Under the pieces are notes generated by a model. That model had not been told where the DNA came from. It was given only the letters and a program-made list of their open reading frames with translations, and did not search any database. Position numbers and translations under genes: made by a program. From a virus (lineage: Duplodnaviria > Caudoviricetes): a stretch of 30,796 bases of DNA. The stretch is taken from the IMG/VR virus record IMGVR_UViG_3300043429_001389, positions 1 to 30,796 of that record, one strand, 5' to 3'. Positions within the stretch are counted from its first letter, which is position 1. Every line of letters starts with the position of its first letter. Below, in pieces: positions 9,183 to 30,796 of the stretch.

Positions 9183-9587
9183 TTAGACCTCCATCATTCG
9201 CAGCACGACACGGAACCAGTCGTCACTGACTTGGTCGCTGTAGAAAACGACCGGGGTTGCTTCGACAGCCGATCCGTCTTCGTGCCGGAACATCACGGTC
9301 CGAGCCGCACCGGAAAGTGTAAGCGTCATGGTCTTACCGGGCGTGGCGGCGAAATTTCGCAGCGAATCGACGACGCCCTTAGTCACCCAGCCGCTGTTCT
9401 CGTCGACCGATTGCAGCGTGATCGGCCTGCCTCCGACGCGCGCAGCGGCACTCACCACCAGGGCGCCACTAAGGGTTCGCTCGACGGTCTGCTCGACGGG
9501 GTGCCAGTTGTACTCGTCGGACCATGCGAGGTCCGGATTCAGCACGATCGTCTGCGTCTGCGGGATGTCGGAAAGGGTGATGCTCAT
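9183..9587 (-). CDS. Distal tail-type protein (134 aa)
   Basis: Directly follows the tape measure gene (4-bp overlap). Contains the W.DEY.W.PV.Q...RTLSGALVV...GRPITL motif. Confidence 0.65.
   Translation of the reverse strand: MSITLSDIPQTQTIVLNPDLAWSDEYNWHPVEQTVERTLSGALVVSAAARVGGRPITLQSVDENSGWVTKGVVDSLRNFAATPGKTMTLTLSGAARTVMFRHEDGSAVEATPVVFYSDQVSDDWFRVVLRMMEV
9316..9358 (-). promoter_or_regulatory. Putative activator-dependent late promoter, internal to the distal tail gene
   Basis: Minus strand GAAATTTCGCCGCC (9358-9345), 23 bp, then TACACT (9321-9316). Same layout as three other sites. Confidence 0.6.
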
Positions 9588-12500
9588 CGTGCGGTCCCTG
9601 CGGAGTCAGCGAGTTGACGAAGGACGGATTCGAGGTTCGCGGCCGAGGCCGCATCGGCGACTCGAACCTGCGACGTGCGCCCCGCGATATTGATGTTCAC
9701 GATCTGCCCGGCCGGCGCGGCGGGGGCATTGCCCGTCGCAGCGGGCGTCTGCGTCTTGCGCTTCGCATCCCGATCCGCCTGCTCGACCTGGCCCACTGCG
9801 CGGTCGAGAATCTGACGCAGCGACAGCACGCGCGACTCCATGTCGGCCATGCCGGCGAGCGACACCGCCGTCGAGTTCTGCTGCGAGATCGCGAGGTTCT
9901 GCTCGGCCGCCGCGAGCGCGGCGCGGATCTGCGGGAGATCCTGGGCAGTGAACTGGTCCCCGCGCGCGGCGCGATCTTGGATCGTGAACGGCAGCGTCGA
10001 GTCGACCGGCCCCGTCTGCCCGGCCAGCCGCTGACGCTGCTCGTCGGTGCGACCGTCAGCGCCGCGAACAGTCGAGGTCATCTTGTTCGACGCGTCGGCC
10101 TCGCGCTGCGCCGCGTCGGCGTTGCGGCTGCGCGCCGCCGCCTCACGATCGATGCTGCTCGTCAGGTCATCGCGCGCCCTCGCGTTCTCGCCGAGCGCCT
10201 CGGTGCTACGCTTCGTGTCGTCGAACTCGCCCTTGAGATCCTCGCGACGCGCTCGGATCCGCGCAAGCTCTTCCTCGCGCGACTTAATCGTGACGCCGAT
10301 GATCTCGGCTTCCTTCGACTTGATCTCGGCGAGCTTGATCTGCGTGTCGAGTTCGATGCGCTTGGCTTCGGTCAGCGCCCCGCGACTCTCCAGTTCCGCA
10401 CGCTGCGCCTTCGCGAGTTCGATCGAACCCTGCGCTTCGATACGCATCGCCTCGGCCTTCAGCTTGTCGATGGCGATCTCGATTTCCTTCTGCCGGATCA
10501 GTGCGATGCGAAGGCTATTCTCCAGCCCGAGCCGACGCGCACGCTCCTCGTCCGACTTGGCCTGCTGCAATTGCAGTTGCAGTGCCGCGACCGCGATGGA
10601 GTTGTCGGCGATCTTCGATCGCGTGACCGCGTTGACCTTTTCGGTCTGATCGCGCAGCGCGTCGTTGTAGCGCGCCGCAGCGACTGCCGCCTGCTCCTGT
10701 GCCTTGCGGAAGTCGTCCTGCGTAGCGGCGCCGAGCGCGAGCGCGGTCTGCGTGGCAGCAACCACGCGGTTCGCCTGCTCCAGCTTCGCGCGGAACTCTT
10801 CCACGCGACCCGCGTTGTCCTCGAACGCGAGCTTGCTCTTCTCCAAGGCGAGCCGCAGGGTCGTGTAACCGTCGGCCTGCGCGCGAGTCGCCTGCGCGTC
10901 GGCGGTGGCCTTCGCGAGCTTCTGCTCCAGGGCGTCGAGGTTCTGCTTGGCACGCTCCGCGAGCGTGCCCTCTTCGAGCGCGAGTTGGCGCGTCGCCTCA
11001 AGCTGCGCGGCCAGGATCCCGGCGTACGCTTCCCGCGCCTTGGCTTCCGCCTCGGTGGACGCCCGCAGGAGGTCGTTCGACTGGATCTGCGCACCGATCA
11101 GTTCGACCTCGTTCCCCTGGATCTTCGCGAGGTCGACGATCTGCGCAGCTTGTGCCTCGACGGCCTTGGTCGCCTTGCCACGAACGACGACTTCGTTCTC
11201 GGCGGCGGTCGCCAGCGTGCCCATCTGCACGCCGAGTGCGACGATCCGCGAGCCGAGGTTCTGCGTCGTGTCCCCTGCGATCTGCTGCGCCTTCGACACT
11301 GCCGTCTGAGCAGCCTCGTATCCGAGCGCGATCGCAGCAGTCTCGACGTACTTTGCGCTCAGGGCAGCGACTTCGACGCCGGCAGCAGTGGCTTTCGCGC
11401 CGGCCTGCTCCGTGGCATTGCCCGCCGCGATAAGGCGCTGCGCCGCCTCGCCTGTCGGTTCGAGCAGTGCTTCGAGGGAGTCGCGCATCGTCTGAATCCG
11501 CGCGTCCGACTTCTCGACTTCCTCCGTGAAGAATTCGAGTGCTTCGGTGCCCTTCCCGCCCAGCGCAAGGAAGGCCGCAGCCGCCGCCTTGCCGACGAGG
11601 AAGAACCGCTCGGCGAGCGTTGCCAGTGCGATTGCGACCGTTCCGACGGCGCCGCCGAGTAGCTTGATCGCGCTGGTGAGGACCGTGATAAATCCCGCCT
11701 CACCGATCGACTGAGCGACGATCGTCAGGGTCGTCTTGAACCTGTTCCACGACGCTTGAATGCCGTCCGTCTCGGCGGTCAGCGTCTGCAAGCCCTTCGT
11801 GAAGGCCGGGAAGAAGTCACGCGCGGCTAGGTTCCCCGACTCGACGAGCTTGATCAGTTCGGCGTCGGTGATGTTCAGCCCTTTCGCCGTCAGCGTCAGG
11901 GCACCAGGCAGGGAGTCGCCGAGTTGCTGGCGAAGCTCCTCCATCGAAACCACGCCCTTCGAAGCGATCTGCCCGAGCGCATCGATAGCGAGCGTTGCGC
12001 GCTGTGACGAAAGTCCCAGCGTGGCCGACGCCTGCGCGACGGCCTTGAACAGCGCATTCGACTGCGCAAGCGGAATGTTCGACGACTGCGTCGCGGCGTT
12101 GAACCGCACGAACGAATCGCTGATCTCCCCGATCGCGAGGCCGGTGCTTGCGGCGGTGGCGCGCAGGAACGCGATCTGCTGGCTCGCGATCTCCGACGAC
12201 TTGTAGACCGCCGACAGACCGCGCGTCATCGTCTCCGCTTGGACGTTGACGACGATGAACTGGCGACCCAACTCCTTAACGCGCTCGACCAGCGCACCGA
12301 CGGCGTCTGCGACGAGGTTGCCGGCTGCGATCTGCCCGATGGAGTTTCGGAACAGGTTCGCCGCCTTGTCGGTCAGCGTCAGTTCGTTCCGGACGCCGCG
12401 AAGGTCACGCTCCAGTTCGGCGATGCGCGCCTTGCCGGCGGACATCGCGCTCGCGAGCGCGCTACCCGTCTGCCCAGACTCGTCCTGCACCCGCTGCATG

Positions 12501-13573
12501 GCGGCGCGGACTTGCAGGATCTCAGCTTCGAGTTCCTTGACGCTGCGCACCCCGAGCGTGCCGAAGGCTTCGTCGAGGCCGCGCGCGGCGTCGCGGGCCT
12601 TCGCTTCGAGGAGCTTGGTCGCGTCCGTCGCTTCCTGGGCGGCCTTCTTCTCCGCGTCGGCGCGGATCGCGGCCTCGCGCTTGACCGCCGCGCTGATGTC
12701 CTGTTCGATGGCAATCCGCTCGTCGGCCGCCTTCTTGCGCAGAGCAAGCTGGGCGGCCTCTTGGATCGCTGCGAGGCGCGACTCCTCCGCTGCCTCGGCC
12801 TGGGCACGACGGGCCGCTTCCAGGGCGTCCTGAGCGGCCAGGGCGGCCTTGCCGGTGCCGTTGAGGGCGGCGATCACCTGGGCCTGTGCGGCGGCGAGGT
12901 TGTCGGCCGCCAGCCCGAGCGCGTTGACCGACTGGGCGGACGCGGCGAGGATCTGCTCCTGCTCGGTCAGCGCCTTGGTCTGATCGTTGACCGAGCGCAC
13001 GCTGCGCTCGTAGGTCTTCTGTAGCTTCGCCTGCGCGGCCTCGGCTGCTTTGAGCGCAGCCGTCTCGTCTGCGAGGGCGTTCTTCGCCTGCTCGACGGCG
13101 GCTTTCTGCGCGACCTTCTCGCGCGTCAGCCGCTCCATCTCCTGCCGGAAGTTCGCCGCGCGCTCGCCGTTCGAGTCGTAGGTCTTGCCGAGGATCTCAA
13201 TCTGCCCGCGCAGATCGGCCAGGCCAGCCTTCGCCTCGGTGTATGCGGTGGCCGCGTTCGCCTGTCGCGTCGCGGCCTCTTGCGTCGCCTGCGCGAGCGC
13301 GTCGAGGTTCGCGCGCAGCGCCGTCGACTGCTCCGCAGCGGCGGCCTGCGCGACGCGAAGCTCGTCCACGCGCGCGGAGAGCGACTCGAAGTTGCGCAGC
13401 GCATCCGCCTGCTGCCCGAGGCGACCGATCTCCTCGGCCAGTTGCTGGAATTCCGGCGCGGCTTCGCCAGCCTCGTTCCCGAGCGCGAGAACGCGCTGCT
13501 GGAGTTGCTGGATTTCTTCCGACCCGAGCGTCTCCACGCTCAGGGTCATTTTCACGTCGCGCTGATTCGCCAT
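9584..13573 (-). CDS. Tape measure protein (1329 aa)
   Basis: Longest ORF, Ala/Gln/Glu-rich and helical, with the tape-measure core ALGQIASKGVVSMEELRQQLGDSLPGA. Located after the major tail gene. Confidence 0.92.
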   Translation of the reverse strand: MANQRDVKMTLSVETLGSEEIQQLQQRVLALGNEAGEAAPEFQQLAEEIGRLGQQADALRNFESLSARVDELRVAQAAAAEQSTALRANLDALAQATQEAATRQANAATAYTEAKAGLADLRGQIEILGKTYDSNGERAANFRQEMERLTREKVAQKAAVEQAKNALADETAALKAAEAAQAKLQKTYERSVRSVNDQTKALTEQEQILAASAQSVNALGLAADNLAAAQAQVIAALNGTGKAALAAQDALEAARRAQAEAAEESRLAAIQEAAQLALRKKAADERIAIEQDISAAVKREAAIRADAEKKAAQEATDATKLLEAKARDAARGLDEAFGTLGVRSVKELEAEILQVRAAMQRVQDESGQTGSALASAMSAGKARIAELERDLRGVRNELTLTDKAANLFRNSIGQIAAGNLVADAVGALVERVKELGRQFIVVNVQAETMTRGLSAVYKSSEIASQQIAFLRATAASTGLAIGEISDSFVRFNAATQSSNIPLAQSNALFKAVAQASATLGLSSQRATLAIDALGQIASKGVVSMEELRQQLGDSLPGALTLTAKGLNITDAELIKLVESGNLAARDFFPAFTKGLQTLTAETDGIQASWNRFKTTLTIVAQSIGEAGFITVLTSAIKLLGGAVGTVAIALATLAERFFLVGKAAAAAFLALGGKGTEALEFFTEEVEKSDARIQTMRDSLEALLEPTGEAAQRLIAAGNATEQAGAKATAAGVEVAALSAKYVETAAIALGYEAAQTAVSKAQQIAGDTTQNLGSRIVALGVQMGTLATAAENEVVVRGKATKAVEAQAAQIVDLAKIQGNEVELIGAQIQSNDLLRASTEAEAKAREAYAGILAAQLEATRQLALEEGTLAERAKQNLDALEQKLAKATADAQATRAQADGYTTLRLALEKSKLAFEDNAGRVEEFRAKLEQANRVVAATQTALALGAATQDDFRKAQEQAAVAAARYNDALRDQTEKVNAVTRSKIADNSIAVAALQLQLQQAKSDEERARRLGLENSLRIALIRQKEIEIAIDKLKAEAMRIEAQGSIELAKAQRAELESRGALTEAKRIELDTQIKLAEIKSKEAEIIGVTIKSREEELARIRARREDLKGEFDDTKRSTEALGENARARDDLTSSIDREAAARSRNADAAQREADASNKMTSTVRGADGRTDEQRQRLAGQTGPVDSTLPFTIQDRAARGDQFTAQDLPQIRAALAAAEQNLAISQQNSTAVSLAGMADMESRVLSLRQILDRAVGQVEQADRDAKRKTQTPAATGNAPAAPAGQIVNINIAGRTSQVRVADAASAANLESVLRQLADSAGTAR

Positions 13574-24338: not shown

Positions 24339-26519
24339 CTACCGCAGGTACGGGCTGACGGCAGACCGGCGCGGCCGGCGCCCGGTCGGGTTCACGATCC
24401 GCACGGGGCGAGGCTCGACGGGCTGCTCGACGGCCTCGTTCTCCTTCATTTCGCGCCGCTCCTCGCTGGTCACGACCAGCGAGTTCATCTCCAACGGGGC
24501 GATCCACGCCGGAACCGCGTTCCAGTCACGGATCTTGTCGAGGCCCAGGCGCAGCATTCCGGCGCGGATCATCCGGCACAGGTCGAAGCTCTCGTTTCGC
24601 TTGCGGATCTGATGCCACCGGCCGTCCTTGCCCCGCTGCTCGGCTTTAAGCTCGTCGAAGAACGCCTGCGGAAGCCACCCCTCGGGGTTCTGCGTCGCGT
24701 GCTTGGGACGCGGGAAGTGGATGTAGCCCGGCCCCGGCGTCGCGCGGCGCAGGCCGGCGTCCACGCCGTCGGACAGCAGGTTCGGGTTGCACAGGTACAG
24801 GGGCACGTCGCCCTTGTCCTTCGCGCCACGCTTTCCGACGCGCGATAGCTTGAGGATGGGCGCGTTGGGCGTATTCGCGCCCTTGTAGAGCATGACGCGG
24901 TCCGCCATGTCCTCGGATCGCACGCGGCGGAACCACCCGTAAGCGTTCGCGGTCGCGCCGTCCTCGCCGCCCGTGTCGACGACCAGCAGGCGCAGCTTGA
25001 TCTCGCGCCCCTCTTCCGGCGTGCGCCAGGTCGAGCGCAGCAGGCGCTCGGTCAGCACGTCCCAGTCTTCCGCGTAGGTGGCGGGGTCGATCGGTGCCTT
25101 GTCCTGCCCCATGCCCTCGCGATTCGAGTGCCGGATCTCGAATCGGTCGACGAGCCACTGCTCCATGTGCGGGCCGACGGCGTGGATCTGCACGACGAAC
25201 CGCGCCGTCGAGCCGCCCTGCACGTCGACTGCCGCGACGACGCACCGCGTGTCGGCCGGCACCACGTAGCGCACTAGGCCGTCGTCGGGGCGGTCTTCGA
25301 GCGGCTTCGCGCGCCCGCTGGCCTCGACGAGGTGCCGGCTCATGTACGGCATCGCCTGGTCGGTGTTCGTCGTCGCCTTGAGCGTCTCTTCCGAGCCGGT
25401 CAGCGCGTAGTCCTGCAACCCCTGGAGGTAGCGCAGCACCAGCGATTCCCACGACTGGTACGCCGCCGCGACGCCACCCAGCCAGTAGCCGGCGATCTTC
25501 GCGCTCGGCTCGGGGCCGACGATTTCGCCCTGCGGCGTCACGATGCAGTTGTCCGGCACCCACAGGCCGCCAGCGTTCAGCGACATCTTGTGCGAGTACG
25601 GGATCTCGACCGCGCACGACGGGCAGATGATTCGCCGGCCGTAGTGCCGCGCGAGCGCGCGAAGGTCGGAGGTCCGGACCACTTCGTTCAGTTCGCGGTC
25701 GTCGGGTAGGTTGAACAGCCCGAGGCCCGGCCGCGCCTCGAAGTGGTCATTGCAGTCGGGGCATTGCCAGTACCAGCGGCGCCGATCGCTGCGGTTGTAG
25801 ATGCCCAGGACGCCGGTCACGGGCGGCGCTTCGTGCGCGGTCGCAGCGCGCCAGTTCGGGTCTTCCCATTCGATGCCCGGCGACGACTCGACGAGCGCCA
25901 TTCCGCGCGACAGGAAGGTCGTCGTGCGCTTCAGCGCGAGCGAGAAGAGCGGCCCCTCCCCGTCCACGTTCTCCGCGTTCGGGATCCGGTCGAGGTCGGT
26001 GATCGCGACGTAGCGGTAGGTCGATCCGGAGACGTTCGAGACGGTCGGCCAGGCCACCCGGACCCACATCCCATGCTTGAACATGATGTCGTGGGTGTTC
26101 CGGTCCGCCGACGAGCTACTGAGCATCTCCTTGATCGCCGGGCTGTTGTCGATCGCCCGTGCGAGGTCGGTCTTCGAGAATTCGCGCGCCTTGTCTTGCG
26201 TCATCGACAGGAACAGGAAGTCGCCGGGGTCGCAGACGACCGCGTGCGCCATCCAGCCGAGCAGCAGCGAAAGCGTCTTGCCGACGCGCGCCGGGCCGGC
26301 GAAGCACACCGCTTCGTGGCGCCTGCTGGCGAGCATGTCCATCGGCTCGACCATGTACGGCGTCTCCGTGGCGCTCCACGGGCCGCCGGCCATGCCGGGC
26401 TGCTTGACGATGAGGAACTTCGCAGCCGCGTCCGCGACGCTGGTCGCCTGGGGCGGCTTGAATGCGAGGTACGCGGACGCGAGATCGCTCAGTGCGAGCG
26501 CGTAATGCTCGTCGAACAT
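24339..26519 (-). CDS. terL: Terminase large subunit, lambda GpA family (726 aa)
   Basis: ATG 26519 overlaps the terS stop (TGATG). TPYM.EPM, Walker A GPARVGKT, ESSPG, CPDC/CPSC Zn-finger, AAVDVQ, VDTGG and RNE.FD nuclease motifs. Confidence 0.93.
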   Translation of the reverse strand: MFDEHYALALSDLASAYLAFKPPQATSVADAAAKFLIVKQPGMAGGPWSATETPYMVEPMDMLASRRHEAVCFAGPARVGKTLSLLLGWMAHAVVCDPGDFLFLSMTQDKAREFSKTDLARAIDNSPAIKEMLSSSSADRNTHDIMFKHGMWVRVAWPTVSNVSGSTYRYVAITDLDRIPNAENVDGEGPLFSLALKRTTTFLSRGMALVESSPGIEWEDPNWRAATAHEAPPVTGVLGIYNRSDRRRWYWQCPDCNDHFEARPGLGLFNLPDDRELNEVVRTSDLRALARHYGRRIICPSCAVEIPYSHKMSLNAGGLWVPDNCIVTPQGEIVGPEPSAKIAGYWLGGVAAAYQSWESLVLRYLQGLQDYALTGSEETLKATTNTDQAMPYMSRHLVEASGRAKPLEDRPDDGLVRYVVPADTRCVVAAVDVQGGSTARFVVQIHAVGPHMEQWLVDRFEIRHSNREGMGQDKAPIDPATYAEDWDVLTERLLRSTWRTPEEGREIKLRLLVVDTGGEDGATANAYGWFRRVRSEDMADRVMLYKGANTPNAPILKLSRVGKRGAKDKGDVPLYLCNPNLLSDGVDAGLRRATPGPGYIHFPRPKHATQNPEGWLPQAFFDELKAEQRGKDGRWHQIRKRNESFDLCRMIRAGMLRLGLDKIRDWNAVPAWIAPLEMNSLVVTSEERREMKENEAVEQPVEPRPVRIVNPTGRRPRRSAVSPYLR

Positions 26520-26917
26520 CAGTCGTCCGTGAGCATCCGGAGGTCGCGAGCGGCGTCGGCGAGCGTGTCGGCGAGGATCGCGTCGACCTTGGCGCACACG
26601 TCCGGCGCCACGCCCTGCCGTTCGAGGTTATCGCCGACGGATCGCAGGGTCTGAGCGACGGCGGACATGATCGTGGTCGACGCCTGCCGCACGGAGTCGC
26701 GCGAGACGTACTCGCCGCTCTTGATGCGGAACTGAAGCTCATGCATGTCGGCCAGCGCGGCCTCTTTTCGCGCCTTGGCCTTCTCGAAGTCGATGATCCG
26801 CTCGGGTTTCTCGTAGGCGCCAGCCTTGCGCCCGGCGCCCGGCCGCGCGCCGCCGCGACCGTCCACGCGGTCCAGCACCTCGAAGCCTTCGTAGAACAGA
26901 TCCTCGTTGCCGTTCAT
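26519..26917 (-). CDS. terS: Terminase small subunit (132 aa)
   Basis: Upstream of and coupled to terL. GRGGARPGAGRK motif and KARKEAALAD..EL......GEYV coiled coil as in Nu1-like TerS. Start taken as ATG 26917. Confidence 0.8.
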   Translation of the reverse strand: MNGNEDLFYEGFEVLDRVDGRGGARPGAGRKAGAYEKPERIIDFEKAKARKEAALADMHELQFRIKSGEYVSRDSVRQASTTIMSAVAQTLRSVGDNLERQGVAPDVCAKVDAILADTLADAARDLRMLTDD

Positions 26918-27119
26918 CGGCCCGATTGTTTCGCATTCGCCAACCGTTGGCAAGCGCGAAACGATTCAGACCTCGAAAATCTCAAAACTCGCGAGCATCG
27001 GGCCTCAGCGGTCCCGCACGTTCGCGGGCGCTCGCAGGGTCCCCGGCGGCGCGCGGCCCGTTGCCTCGGGTCGCATCGGCACCACGGGCACAGCACTAGT
27101 CGCGTGCCCAGGGCGAGGC

Positions 27120-27295
<176 letters not shown>

Positions 27296-27333
27296 GGGCC
27301 GCACTAGGTACGTGCCCAGGGCGAGGCACTGCT

Positions 27334-27405
27334 AGTCCCTCCAGTCCCTCCAGTCCCTCCAGTCCCTCCAGTCCCTCCAGTCCCTCCAGTCCCTCCAGTC
27401 CCTCC
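27334..27405. repeat. Tandem repeat (AGTCCCTCC)8
   Basis: Eight perfect 9-bp copies read directly. Confidence 0.97.
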
Positions 27406-27485
27406 AGAGCGGCCCGAGTCCGTGCCATCCGAAGCACCACCGGACCGCACTAGGTACGTGCCCAGGGCGAGGCACTGCGAACGAA

Positions 27486-27511
27486 TGCCGTTCGTGCGCC
27501 GACGAACGGTA
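27486..27511. other. Candidate cosN (terminase nicking) dyad
   Basis: TGCCGTTCGT-gcgccg-ACGAACGGTA (10-bp arms, one mismatch), central 12-mer CGTGCGCCGACG. Upstream of terS and exactly at a compositional boundary. Confidence 0.4.
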
Positions 27512-27552
27512 GGCAGAGTGTGCGAAAAGTCTCGATTCCGTATTACCGTGCG

Positions 27553-27561
27553 TGCTAAAGT
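27553..27561 (+). promoter_or_regulatory. Putative extended -10 sigma70 promoter for the plus-strand island
   Basis: TGcTAAAGT lies ~33 nt upstream of ATG 27594. The -35 region is poor. Confidence 0.4.
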
Positions 27562-27593
27562 TTCGCATCGGCTAACGCAACGGACCCGACGCC

Positions 27594-28406
27594 ATGCAAA
27601 CGCTCCCCACGTACTACCGTCCCGCTTCCCTTTTTTCGGTCGACACCAATCCGAAAACGCTAAAAGGTCAAAAATACGGGTTCAAAACGGCCGTGCTGTA
27701 TATGGCGCCGGCGGACCTTTCGGGCGTGAATCTATGCCCTATGGCATTCGTCGCAAAATGCGATGTCGCGTGCCTGAATACCGCAGGCAATCCCGCATAT
27801 GCGGAAACGAAGCGGCGCGGCCGACTGAACAAGGCACATTATTTCCTGTCGGACCGCGTCGGTTTCATGCGACAGGTAGCACGGGAAATCGCACGGACCG
27901 CGCGTAAGGTTTCCGCCGAGGGATTTAAACTCCTCGTCCGTTTGAACGGCACGACCGACATTCGCTGGGAATTGATTCCCGTTGACGTTGACGCGAAAAC
28001 CGCAAAGGCAATCGGCGTGCCGTCGGGAGTCTATCCGAGCATTTTCGCGGTTTTCCCGGACGTGCAATTTTACGATTACACTAAGATTCCGAATCGGCAC
28101 AGCCTGCCGACGAATTATGACCTTACGTTTTCCTATTCGGGCGTCGCGGCATTCGCGAAACATGTCGACCGCGCGCGGTCGGCCGGAATGCGGATTGCGG
28201 TAGTCTTCCGCAGCAAAAAAGACATTCCCGAGTCTTTTATCGGTATGGAATGTGTCGACGGGGACGATTCGGACATCCGACATCTTGACCCGCGCGGGGT
28301 CGTCGTCGCGCTGTATGCCAAAGGCAAAGCGAAAAACGATGCATCGGGTTTCGTCGTCGATTCCCCGAAGCGTACCGGCCGGATCATTCCGATTCTCGCA
28401 GCGTGA
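27594..28406 (+). CDS. GP88-like phage protein with Cys cluster (radical-SAM-like, 270 aa)
   Basis: NPKTLKG, LYMAPA..SG.NLCP, C-x7-C-x3-C-LNTAG, RLNGTTDI.WE, QFYDYTK, LTFSYSG and DGD.SD.R.LD motifs, recalled as typical of gene-product-88-like proteins. Confidence 0.65.
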   Translation: MQTLPTYYRPASLFSVDTNPKTLKGQKYGFKTAVLYMAPADLSGVNLCPMAFVAKCDVACLNTAGNPAYAETKRRGRLNKAHYFLSDRVGFMRQVAREIARTARKVSAEGFKLLVRLNGTTDIRWELIPVDVDAKTAKAIGVPSGVYPSIFAVFPDVQFYDYTKIPNRHSLPTNYDLTFSYSGVAAFAKHVDRARSAGMRIAVVFRSKKDIPESFIGMECVDGDDSDIRHLDPRGVVVALYAKGKAKNDASGFVVDSPKRTGRIIPILAA

Positions 28407-28648
28407 AAATGCAAACATATTCCGCCGATGTCTTGACGCGCGCCCGACTAGAATTGTCGGCGGGAGTGTGCGCAATCATGCGGGCCGATCGCGCTACGCT
28501 TTCCGCATATTTCGGCGATTACTCGGGCGATTACTCGGGCGAATCCTTGACCGGCAAAACCGACGAAGAAATCCGCGCGCTATGCTTGGATTTCGTGCGG
28601 GAAGAATGTTTCTCATTCGGTATCCACTGCGCGGATATCGGACTTTAA
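28403..28648 (+). CDS. Small acidic hypothetical protein (~80 aa)
   Basis: GTGA overlap with the upstream gene (alternative ATG 28409) and the same codon style as the island. Contains a 12-bp duplication (GDYS)x2. Confidence 0.6.
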   Translation: MKMQTYSADVLTRARLELSAGVCAIMRADRATLSAYFGDYSGDYSGESLTGKTDEEIRALCLDFVREECFSFGIHCADIGL

Positions 28649-28659
28649 TAGGTGAATCA

Positions 28660-29004
28660 ATGAAACCTTTCGCGACCCTCGCCGATGCGCCGAAAATCGC
28701 GCGTCAATTCGTGCTGAATCTGATCGACGATATCGGGGCCGGTAAAATCCCGTTGGTCGTCTATCGCAATAGCAAAGAATCGGACCCGAATGTTTGCCAT
28801 TCGCAGGATTTTTGCGACGCTAATATGACGATGGATTCGGCATTCTCTGACTGCGGATTTGCCTGCGGATCGGACGCATTCGACGGCACCAAAACCGACG
28901 AAGAAATCGAAGCAATTTACGATCGGATTTCCCCGGTATGGAATGCCGCATGGGCACTCGCCAAAGCGGCAGAATTCGACCATTCTCGAATCGACGACAA
29001 ATGA
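28660..29004 (+). CDS. Acidic hypothetical protein (114 aa) with CHSQDFCDANM motif
   Basis: ATG 28660 with AGGTGA SD. It is the C-terminal part of ORF 28252..29004. Confidence 0.7.
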   Translation: MKPFATLADAPKIARQFVLNLIDDIGAGKIPLVVYRNSKESDPNVCHSQDFCDANMTMDSAFSDCGFACGSDAFDGTKTDEEIEAIYDRISPVWNAAWALAKAAEFDHSRIDDK

Positions 29005-29186
29005 AAGACATTCGGGAAGCATCGGACGCGGAAATCCGCGCGGAAATCGCACGCTTTCAGAGTCAGCAAAAACGCTATCCCGCGACGAGTCCAATTCATG
29101 CGGAAATCGGCGCGCGACTATTGGCGCCGCTATTCGCTGAAATGGCGCGCCGAGCTAGCGCATCGGGTCCGACGACCCTGCGCTAG
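29001..29186 (+). CDS. Small helical hypothetical protein (61 aa)
   Basis: ATGA overlap with the upstream stop. Sequence begins MKDIREASDAEIRAEIARF. Confidence 0.6.
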   Translation: MKDIREASDAEIRAEIARFQSQQKRYPATSPIHAEIGARLLAPLFAEMARRASASGPTTLR

Positions 29187-29222
29187 GCTATGCGTTATTC
29201 CCTTCCGGATATAGCGGCAACG

Positions 29223-29415
29223 GGACCGCCTACGGGCCGCAGGATCGGCCGCTCGGGGCCGCTGCGCCGTCGCGCCGCTGTGCCGTCCGCCGGACCGCCT
29301 ACGGGCCGCGTGATCGGCCGCTCGGGGCCGCTGCGCCGTCGCGCCGCTGTGCCGTCCGCCGGACCGCCTACGGGCCGCGTGATCGGCCGCTCGGGGCCGC
29401 TGCGCCGTCGCGCCG
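29223..29415. repeat. 69-bp GC-rich tandem repeat, ~2.8 copies
   Basis: Units start at 29223, 29292 and 29361 (GGACCGCCTACGGGCCGC...GTGCCGTCCGCC) and are nearly identical. Confidence 0.95.
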
Positions 29416-29448
29416 ACGGGCCGGCGCCGGTCCCGCGCGCCCGTTTTT
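29416..29448 (+). terminator. Possible terminator of the plus-strand island
   Basis: ACGGGC...GCCCGT stem enclosing a GC-rich inner hairpin, followed by TTTT. Confidence 0.35.
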
Positions 29449-29709
29449 CCGCTCGCAGACGGGTCGCTCGAAAACTTTTTTGCCCCCGGCAATTCTGCCG
29501 GCCGAAGGCGCCTGCCAGCCTACCACCTGGCTACCACAGCACAGCTACACCTGTCGACCCCAGGGGTAGCACCCCCCGGCCGTTCGTTTTTTATTTCCAA
29601 CTGTGAAGTCGCATTGCATAGTTCGCGGCCGACTCCTGAGCCAGCGCGGGCACCGGGAGCTGCCGGGTGTCGACCACCGCCGACCTTCACCCTGGACCAA
29701 GAACCGACA

Positions 29710-30334: not shown

Positions 30335-30390
30335 TTTTTGCAGGGCATTTTGCAGGGCATTTTTCCAGGCAATTTTTGCCCCTATTTTTG
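30335..30390. repeat. Phased T-tract repeats (TTTTGCAGGGCA x2 plus degenerate copies)
   Basis: T-tracts begin at ~30335, 30348, 30360, 30373 and 30385. Confidence 0.7.
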
Positions 30391-30397
30391 TCACGCG

Positions 30398-30796
30398 TTA
30401 TTCCTCGGTCTTCCGGCCCTTCGGGACCACCGGCTCTAGCAGACCGAGCGCCTCCAGTTCCCGCGCGACTTGCATGATGCGTCGATCCGACTGACGCAGG
30501 CTGCGGGAAATCTCGCGCACCTCGAATCCCTGCTGGAGCATCCGCATGATGAGCCGGTAGTTCGAGTCTCGCTCGTACGCTGCGAGGCGCGGCACGGCAA
30601 TCCGCTGACCGCCCCACTCTTTCGACAGCTTTTGTGCCAGCGACAAGCCGATGAGCTTGACGATCGTCTGATCCTCGTTCACCTCCAGTGGCACGTACAT
30701 ATTCACGGCGTCGCCGTACCAGGCCGCGAGCCGGACGGTGGCGCTGAACCCGATCACGGCCGACAGGTCGTCGAGCGTGTTTCCCTTCAGTTCCAT
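30398..30796 (-). CDS. Mor/C-family transcription activator (132 aa)
   Basis: L..VIG..A..RL...YG...YVP...LIG...A.KL..EWGGQRIAVP followed by a C-terminal HTH (GFEVREISRSLRQSDRRIMQV), as in Mu Mor/C-like activators. Confidence 0.75.
   Translation of the reverse strand: MELKGNTLDDLSAVIGFSATVRLAAWYGDAVNMYVPLEVNEDQTIVKLIGLSLAQKLSKEWGGQRIAVPRLAAYERDSNYRLIMRMLQQGFEVREISRSLRQSDRRIMQVARELEALGLLEPVVPKGRKTEE

Follow-up and report, generated by a model that had tools for sequence, protein, structure and literature searches.

Why does a two-kilobase block near one end of a phage genome lack short DNA words that are frequent in the sequence around it? We addressed this question in IMG/VR virus record IMGVR_UViG_3300043429_001389 (Duplodnaviria; Caudoviricetes). 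The window, by which we mean the whole stretch of 30,796 nucleotides that was analyzed, covers approximately half of the genome of a long-tailed phage. A preliminary description, made from the letters alone, had pointed to an island at 27480-29514 purged of the words that make up the adjacent tandem arrays and had proposed that it is the first-injected end of the chromosome, hidden from defenses that read asymmetric sites. Our results show that the feature is real, and it is most likely a region that is exposed first and has been thinned of recognition words containing adenine.

Word depletion in the island

Our counts reproduced those reported for 27480-29514. CCAG and GTGG are absent, CTGG occurs once (27965), and CCAC occurs twice (27607 and 28624); CAGCAG, CACCAC, and CTCCAG are missing from both strands, as is CCWGG. 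The return is as abrupt as described, with nine CCAG or CTGG words in the 450 bp after 29514. The single CCAG+CTGG occurrence in the island compares with 19.3 expected from the rest-of-window rate and 16.2 after GC adjustment, and the minimum in any 2035-bp stretch of positions 1-26950 is nine. A change-point fit delimited the block as follows.

27521..29505, no strand: word-depleted zone, with a five-trimer rate of 0.070 versus 0.155 per base

Relative to GC-based expectation, AG/CT stands at ~0.51-0.52 in this zone, mixed weak/strong steps at 0.78, and CCA+CTC+CAC+CAG at 0.38, compared with 0.87, 1.06, and 0.85, respectively, in the rest of the window. CA/TG (0.70) and AC/GT (0.76) are also low in the island, and the trimers CCA, CTC, AGG, CAC, and CAG fall to 0.29-0.47, with AAA, AAT, CGC, CGA, and CCG in excess. 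The loss is symmetric between the strands (CCA 10/TGG 11, CTC 12/GAG 9, and CAG 10/CTG 15, with 29 expected of each) and is seen separately in every gene, in the spacer, and in a 69-bp repeat at the inner edge. The weak-strong step deficit is confined to lag 1, and the effect lies chiefly at the level of two to three letters and not at that of the named words of four to six letters. A Dcm-like system reading CCWGG was considered as the driver and rejected: the site is absent, but only about six copies would be expected, and the loss reaches unrelated words.

The composition of the block was described correctly in part. GC content falls across it from 67% to 52-58%. The codon shift held for GAA (91% versus 29%), AAA (80% versus 11%), and CAA (60% versus 18%) and was weaker for ATT (40% versus 10%) and TTT (30% versus 6%), ATC and TTC still being the majority codons. 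Palindromes do persist in the case of GGCC (17), CGCG (38), and GTCGAC (3), but GATC, although present, is reduced (8 versus 23 expected from the rest of the window). Word-rich arrays flank the block on one side (27121-27407), whereas the array at the other edge, the 69-bp repeat, lies inside the zone and is itself word-poor.

Shuffling the island's own codons did not reproduce the depletion: AG was observed 98 times versus 125.6 after shuffling, CCA 20 versus 40.6, and CCAG 1 versus 6.2. The signal also survived resampling with codons matched for GC content at the third position, and the loss sits at codon junctions. The island's AG ratio of 0.499 is below that of all 1420 1.7-kb windows drawn from the fetched phage loci (some of them overlapping) and below 45 of 45 AT-shifted control windows, the lowest of which are mostly early blocks of relatives. 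Two simpler accounts, overall composition and a lower-GC donor with the same bias genome-wide, are thus not borne out, because the depletion survives GC and amino acid controls in the codon-shuffled k-mer analysis and homologues elsewhere are unbiased.

Position at a predicted chromosome end

The depleted zone adjoins a chromosome end, as had been supposed. The contig starts of relatives point to it as the terminase-distal end of a phage with a cohesive-end site (cos). Many related contigs start 500-800 bp upstream of the terminase large subunit gene, and the cos motif is the start of eight relatives' contigs, seven of them at one alignment column and one a base earlier. The features concerned are the following.

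27003..27015, minus strand: predicted cos cleavage site (cohesive end), left arm toward lower coordinates and right end toward higher
27036..27044, minus strand: cosQ-like conserved nonamer, ~20 bp from the cos motif, kept in 7 of 7 aligned sequences that reach it
26519..26953, minus strand: terminase small subunit (terS; PHROG 57 and 141)
24339..26516, minus strand: terminase large subunit, lambda gpA type (Pfam GpA_ATPase, E 2e-64; GpA_nuclease, E 2.5e-64)

A gpA-type terminase, an adjacent terS, and a defined end upstream of terS are all in agreement with lambda-like cos packaging, and we read the motif at 27003-27015 as a predicted lambda-type cos site; the nonamer is presumably similar to lambda cosQ. 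No long direct terminal repeat was apparent in the window, which holds half of the genome, and in the relatives the contigs open with a short motif that is cos-like and adjacent to terS. Inside the terminase-distal end, the arrays lie at 70-470 bp and the island at 0.5-2.5 kb. Lambda-type packaging starts at the terminase side, the opposite end being packed last, and the usual rule is that the last-packed end is ejected first. Judging from the position of cos, the island end would be packed last and would, by this rule, be ejected first. The block itself is occupied by four small genes and the repeat.

27594..28406, plus strand: GP88-family gene (PF17338, E 6e-34), 270 amino acids, predicted radical S-adenosylmethionine (SAM)-like partial barrel
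28403..28648, plus strand: acidic orphan gene, 81 amino acids, isoelectric point 4.6, no family match of note
28657..29004, plus strand: acidic gene, 115 amino acids, PHROG 21393, homologues in PaMx74/Xoo-sp2-like phages
29001..29186, plus strand: basic open reading frame, 61 amino acids, no family in family searches
29223..29415, plus strand: GC-rich 69-bp tandem repeat, 2.8 copies (Tandem Repeats Finder (TRF) and repeat search), at the zone's inner edge; candidate boundary element

A closely similar composition is found in the first-step DNA of T5 (L215:1-10200, terminal repeat). There, AG stands at 0.79 versus 1.10, CTC at 0.54 versus 1.09, and CGC at 2.34 versus 0.72. Kilobase by kilobase, weak-strong steps run at 0.78-0.88 before the injection stop and at 0.94-1.04 after it, so that the compositional step at ~10 kb coincides with the annotated stop; GC content is slightly higher before it, with no drop. 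All four further T5-like phages (from Aeromonas, Vibrio, and Klebsiella) dip over the A1/A2 block, the limits of the early blocks in these phages and in the cos relatives having been judged visually from the gene maps and the location of cos. The fetched stretch of pVp-1 is not first-step DNA and was used as a control. The signature as measured in this analysis, rather than taken from print (low AG/CT and GA/TC, high CGC, and a sharp inner edge), is present in the island, with a rank correlation to T5 first-step DNA of 0.60 for trimers and 0.47 for four-mers.

Both regions also carry small early genes and lie next to the terminase end of the map, and the island's 69-bp array may correspond to the repeat-bearing noncoding stretch at the inner edge of the T5 region. 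They differ in length (2 kb in the island versus 10 kb in T5), in the kind of end (predicted cohesive end versus long terminal repeat), and in gene content, T5 having A1, A2, and dmp, whereas the island's four genes match GP88, PHROG 21393, or nothing. Palindromic sites, which are not depleted in the island, are depleted in the T5-like phages: over the five of them, first-step DNA holds 15 CCWGG versus 55 and 71 GGCC versus 136, short beyond lower-order expectation. The injection pause is proven for T5 (PMC10644984, 10.1101/866236), whereas the island is likened to it by its composition. This phage, together with DNA known to wait in the cell on its own, shows the signature at its strongest.

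Extending the analysis to related phages, as the preliminary description had advised, revealed an early-block dip in eight of nine cos relatives (weak-strong steps of 0.84-0.93 versus 0.99-1.06 elsewhere). From an initial 22 pattern matches, 11 were excluded for having no terminase match in the left arm (L212 was kept as an array example only). The early-block comparison was made without L193, L198, L210, and L211 (right arm <300 bp) and without G001, G002, and G005, in which no early block was evident; G001 and G002 end ~1.3 kb beyond the Mor gene, and G005 has no Mor match. Judged by terminase, Curvibacter phage PCA1 (58%) and Acidovorax phage ACF1 (63%) are nearest among named phages. Both share the map seen here, namely terS, a short array, small genes facing away from the terminase, a Mor-like activator, and primase, and both show the same bias in a weaker form. 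Their array units are unlike those of this phage. The right arm of PCA1 has no GP88 match, and GP88 was not found in the searched right arms of the cos relatives.

That first-injected DNA can be free of sites is known already for T5-like phages (Demerecviridae), for T7-like phages (Autographiviridae), and for plasmids. T5-like phages are restricted mainly via sites in the first-step region (PMC10644984), and in T7-like phages sites matter mainly in first-injected DNA (PMC12455610). For Autographiviridae, including T7 with Ocr, T3 with its SAM hydrolase, and Murciavirus, it is chiefly in the leading region that Type I sites count, and the first gene is an anti-restriction gene (PMC12455610). 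In some T7-like phages, GP88 holds this place. That work dealt with single sites, whereas this is a long-tailed cos phage with a low-order signature. In conjugative plasmids, the leading region likewise combines first-entering DNA, altered composition, and anti-defense genes; it differs from the island in its single-stranded entry, in palindrome depletion in some groups, and in codon adaptation, the island's loss being strand-symmetric and nonpalindromic (10.1101/2025.04.03.647016). In the literature covered, we found no report of the low-order signature in T5 first-step DNA, of its step at the T5 stop, or of such a region or two-step injection in cos phages; older and subscription papers, which may have noted T5 composition, lay mostly outside this scope. 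A low-order positional trace of site avoidance spans unrelated phage families and ends exactly at the T5 injection stop. If it holds, it would allow cheap mapping of first-entering DNA, the choice of candidate anti-defense genes such as GP88, and a direct test of two-step injection beyond the T5 family.

Selecting agents and rival explanations

In the explanation that we favor, the island would be the first DNA to act in the cell and the product of long selection by the restriction systems of many hosts, namely those whose sites contain adenine, Type I foremost and probably Type IIG, Type III, bacteriophage exclusion (BREX), and phosphorothioate systems too. Sites would be costly in DNA that is exposed before the counter-defense genes work, and such a cost would drive synonymous and noncoding changes that shift adenines into A/T runs, away from C/G neighbors. 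This shift, which is seen in the composition, would lower many different sites at once. Protection of the remaining genome would then fall to the four genes, GP88 first among them. GP88 might, speculatively, consume SAM, on which Type I and Type III enzymes depend; the first gene of T3 removes it (PMC6286503, PMC8594841).

One pointer to a class of enzyme is the way in which Type I motifs space their two methylated adenines: these lie 7-10 bases apart in all 19 distinct named motifs that we counted by eye in 2 of the 17 parts of the Blow et al. table (PMC4752239, supplement S3). A..T pairs at lags 7-10 stand at 0.77 in the island (z -3.9), at 0.89 in eight relatives (z -6.5), and at 0.94 in T5-like first-step DNA (z -6.3), compared with 0.98 in the backgrounds. 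The pooled dip is box-shaped over lags 7-10, with lags 6 and 11 at or above 1.0.

Several observations weigh against this interpretation. The mirror control, T..A, is also low (0.89 in the island, 0.95 in the relatives, and 0.97 in T5-like DNA), and under shuffling of the island's codons A..T (p 0.015) and T..A (p 0.005) both fall, so that the Type I signal is not clean in the window by itself. Moreover, lags 7-10 were fixed after a first lag profile had been inspected. The spacing dip is therefore support, not proof. The proposal of selection by asymmetric-site defenses is partly supported, in that Type I spacing is low but Type IIG sites are not: 15 of the 20 named IIG rows seen contain AG, yet a count of the table's first 12 distinct IIG sites gave 18 in the island versus 21.5 +/- 4.5 after shuffling (p 0.26), and T5 first-step DNA again showed no clear shortage of them (38 versus 44.3 +/- 6.2). 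Six-base palindromes are not depleted in the island (48 versus 34.6 expected), with CCWGG (absent) and GATC (reduced) as exceptions among palindromic sites. Orthodox Type II sites are those that phages usually avoid, genome-wide avoidance of Type I and IIG sites not being seen (PMC6286503). Lambda ejects either end first about half of the time in vitro (PMC10287942), which challenges the rule used above. The arrays carry 28 CAGCAG and 8 CTCCAG in a single orientation, though they would enter before the island; the first CAGCAG copy in the opposite orientation lies at 30530, and Type III enzymes require two inverse sites (PMC10644984). The relative L199 lacks the early-block signature, as does mycobacteriophage Trike, in which GP88 occupies the end position. 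The signature is not universal to first-entering ends, because it is absent from the SPO1 terminal repeat and the lambda right end and leaves only a weak trace in T7, phiKMV, and CB5A.

A bolder version of the favored explanation is doubtful. It holds that the cos-phage group injects in two T5-like steps, with a 2.5-kb first step halting at the array at ~29.4 kb, and that the radical-SAM-like GP88 drains SAM and thereby disables Type I, Type III, and BREX systems ahead of entry of the remaining DNA. If this were true, the AG-poor, Type-I-spacing-poor signature would be a sequence-only marker of paused first-step DNA, and hence of anti-defense genes, in any phage.

Phosphorothioate-based defense (Ssp, Dnd, and BREX type 4) is unlikely to be the main selecting agent, but it has evident attractions. 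Its motifs have only three to four letters and would account for the loss of whole trimers. Published motifs comprise CCA, CAG, NCTC, GAAC/GTTC, GAAG, GAGC, GACG, GATC, and GGCC (PMC12914056). CTC, CCA, and CAG hold ranks 1-3 of the 32 trimers in the island, and among 136 four-mers GAAC takes rank 2 in the island and rank 3 in T5, and it is below lower-order expectation in both pooled sets. In addition, T5 escapes SspE and SspFGH (PMC8092258). On the other hand, GGCC and GACG are not depleted, CCA is just mildly low in the relatives and GP88 loci, and the idea was formed after CCA, CTC, CAG, and GAAC had been noticed. SspE senses the mark in host DNA, the need for CCA in the target being merely presumed (PMC9646914), and the A..T spacing dip would be left unexplained.

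Acquisition of the block from a donor with a genome-wide bias, which the fall in GC and the patchy occurrence of gene homologues might suggest, is improbable and already largely refuted. We collected 33 nonredundant viral GP88 loci, 47 of 80 having been dropped under a redundancy threshold of 80% identity. Around the gene, mean AG falls to 0.79 versus 1.02-1.07 upstream, the 1.2 kb downstream is also lower in 24 of 26 loci, and recoding tests gave z < 0 in 17 of the 20 loci whose flanks were long enough. In many named phages, GP88 is directed inward from a place close to a record end, record ends not necessarily being physical ends; in the T7-like Lo5R7ANS it is found at 1.8 kb. Against a donor, none of 1232 windows away from GP88 has AG <0.65, the mid-genome GP88 of Sansa shows no bias, and the homologues of the third gene in PaMx74 and AXL1 sit in ordinary unbiased DNA. 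Relatives are biased at the same position with other genes, and G008, as T5, dips without a drop in GC. The bias tracks position, not ancestry.

Self-protection is a very improbable reading; here the phage would itself make an early enzyme that damages DNA, and the block would avoid the words recognized by this enzyme while host DNA is attacked. How T5 first-step DNA escapes A1-dependent degradation is unexplained (10.64898/2026.04.02.716235, 10.1101/866236), the dip is centered on GP88 in the 33 loci, and the structural neighbors of GP88 include spore photoproduct lyase, a radical enzyme whose substrate is DNA. However, phages with unrelated early genes, namely the T5 family and cos relatives without GP88, have lost these words too. 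The remaining genome would need a separate shield, and family searches recognized no nuclease among the four island genes.

There is scant reason to think that the bias helps genes expressed very early and strongly, by speeding their translation or shaping their RNA: GAA, AAA, and CAA predominate and plasmid leading regions show adapted codon usage (10.1101/2025.04.03.647016), but the depletion is equal on the noncoding strand and at codon junctions, the noncoding repeat shares it, GAG codon use in T5 is unchanged (0.34 versus 0.31), and no extra RNA folding was found (island z -0.84 +/- 0.30 versus -0.37 +/- 0.23; T5 -0.53 versus -1.49). Mutation or repair that works differently near the chromosome end, yielding bias and slippage arrays without selection, is as hard to credit: the effect is mostly at the two-letter level and the arrays cluster at the end, but the inner edges are sharp here and in five T5-like phages, the boundary is functional in T5, neighbor-dependent mutation would not easily give a dip at lags 7-10, and the lambda right end has no bias.

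Arrays, island genes, and flanking features

The stretch between the cos site and the first gene is occupied by tandem arrays and a framing element.

27087-27124, 27295-27332, and 27441-27478, plus strand: three copies of a 38-bp element framing the arrays (family D7, 79-100% identity, repeat search)
27121..27288, plus strand: CAG/CAC triplet array, TRF period 3, 58.7 copies, A 58 and T 0 on the plus strand
27334..27407, plus strand: array of a 9-bp unit, 8.2 perfect copies (TRF)

The suggestion that arrays and island form one coordinated, word-based system did not hold up. A coordinated decoy system is unsupported because the arrays are one-sided, variable among relatives, and low-complexity in look, with no excess of words over random units in the tests made. 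Of the 10 relatives whose right arm exceeds 200 bp, 6 have an array detected by TRF no farther than 400 bp from cos (L195, L207, L208, L210, L211, and PCA1), and L193, L197, L199, and L209 do not. Arrays also lie at the contig edges of ACF1, G003, and L048, with different units and orientation. Among relatives, the units are triplets, 6-, 8-, and 9-mers, or longer, and the CA-rich strand points toward cos in some and away from it in others. Most arrays are rich in the words that the island lacks, but mostly within the range of random units. Chi-like or decoy functions were rejected on this variation in units and orientation and on the largely random word content.

The first 465 bp contain 171 distinct six-mers, versus at least 297 in 57 left-arm blocks, and few palindromes, and both arrays have zero A..T pairs at lags 7-10. 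Between cos and the first gene, the arrays probably form a spacer of low complexity with few distinct words and are not decoys. An Rfam scan gave a single chance match, on the CAG array. The left end of phiKMV (L217:1-1000) is rich in array words, four trimers standing at 1.57 of expectation, and is followed by a CTC-poor early stretch. The 38-bp element contains CCAGGG, a word that PCA1 carries, over the 4 kb next to cos, nine times in one orientation and once in the opposite one; this repetition accounts for CCAG not being low there. From this arrangement, CCAGGG may mark the binding site of a phage protein.

The tape measure gene (9584-13573) encodes 1329 amino acids. Tail length per tape-measure residue is 0.15 nm, which gives a tail of ~200 nm, near the length of the 580-bp noncoding leader (27016-27593). 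The leader may be DNA that spans the tail or the envelope.

At the inner edge, G003 has a 28-bp array of ~16 copies that closes its early block at the place matching the 69-bp repeat, and G006/L197 have shorter repeats 3.2 kb in from cos; TRF detected no repeat at this place in PCA1. The early genes of G003 (L171, G003:C1 ~50300-53300) are separated by at least four copies of a ~70-bp element that ends in a ribosome-binding site.

GP88 belongs to a large family, with 7995 matches among 8000 candidates scored, and Cys-48, Cys-56, and Cys-60 are invariant in a 103-sequence alignment. An identical protein is encoded on a 63,177-bp contig in the protein collection. The structural model has a predicted local distance difference test score of 92, and its best structural matches are radical SAM enzymes with Z of at most 6.5; 22 of the top 23 are radical SAM by title. 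The best match (Z 6.5, root mean square deviation 4.3, 10% identity) lies within a range that the tool calls common. As in the radical SAM superfamily (pyruvate formate-lyase activating enzyme, QueE, and spore photoproduct lyase), GP88 is predicted to form a partial barrel with three cysteines after the first strand. The spacing of these cysteines, CX7CX3C, is unlike the usual radical SAM motif, CX3CX2C. GP88 had no match in the PDB, either by sequence or by Foldseek at E 0.001, in a viral structure library it matched only GP88-like models, and our literature search returned nothing on its function. In Limnohabitans phage DC31 (L188:17000-20000), a sharp 3-kb AG-poor island surrounds a mid-record GP88, with no dip in A..T spacing; it may mark the real end of that phage.

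DNA mimics are often small acidic proteins, as are two of the island gene products. The third gene had no usable Atlas match and a family of six homologues counting itself. The second and third genes share an identical 19-bp stretch coding for KTDEEI (28555-28573 and 28890-28908), and a 12-bp tandem duplication lies at 28514-28542. A sigma-70 promoter scan found none directed toward the island genes.

Beyond the depleted zone, composition is ordinary over a further gene.

30398..30796, minus strand: Mor-family late transcription activator

A search with this Mor protein returned L005 as the sole match, a contig record with 99.96% identity to the window over 8815 bp, spanning the arrays and the island. 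On the other side of cos, the minus strand from 26953 downward carries the head, tail, and terminase genes. The terminase large subunit genes of L013, L015, L035, L037, and ACF1 are ~1 kb longer than the one here, as if they held an intein or intron. Just 3' of the Mor-like gene, at 30335-30379, are T-rich repeats of 12-13 bp, and similar repeats sit at the same place in PCA1, G003, and G006/L197.

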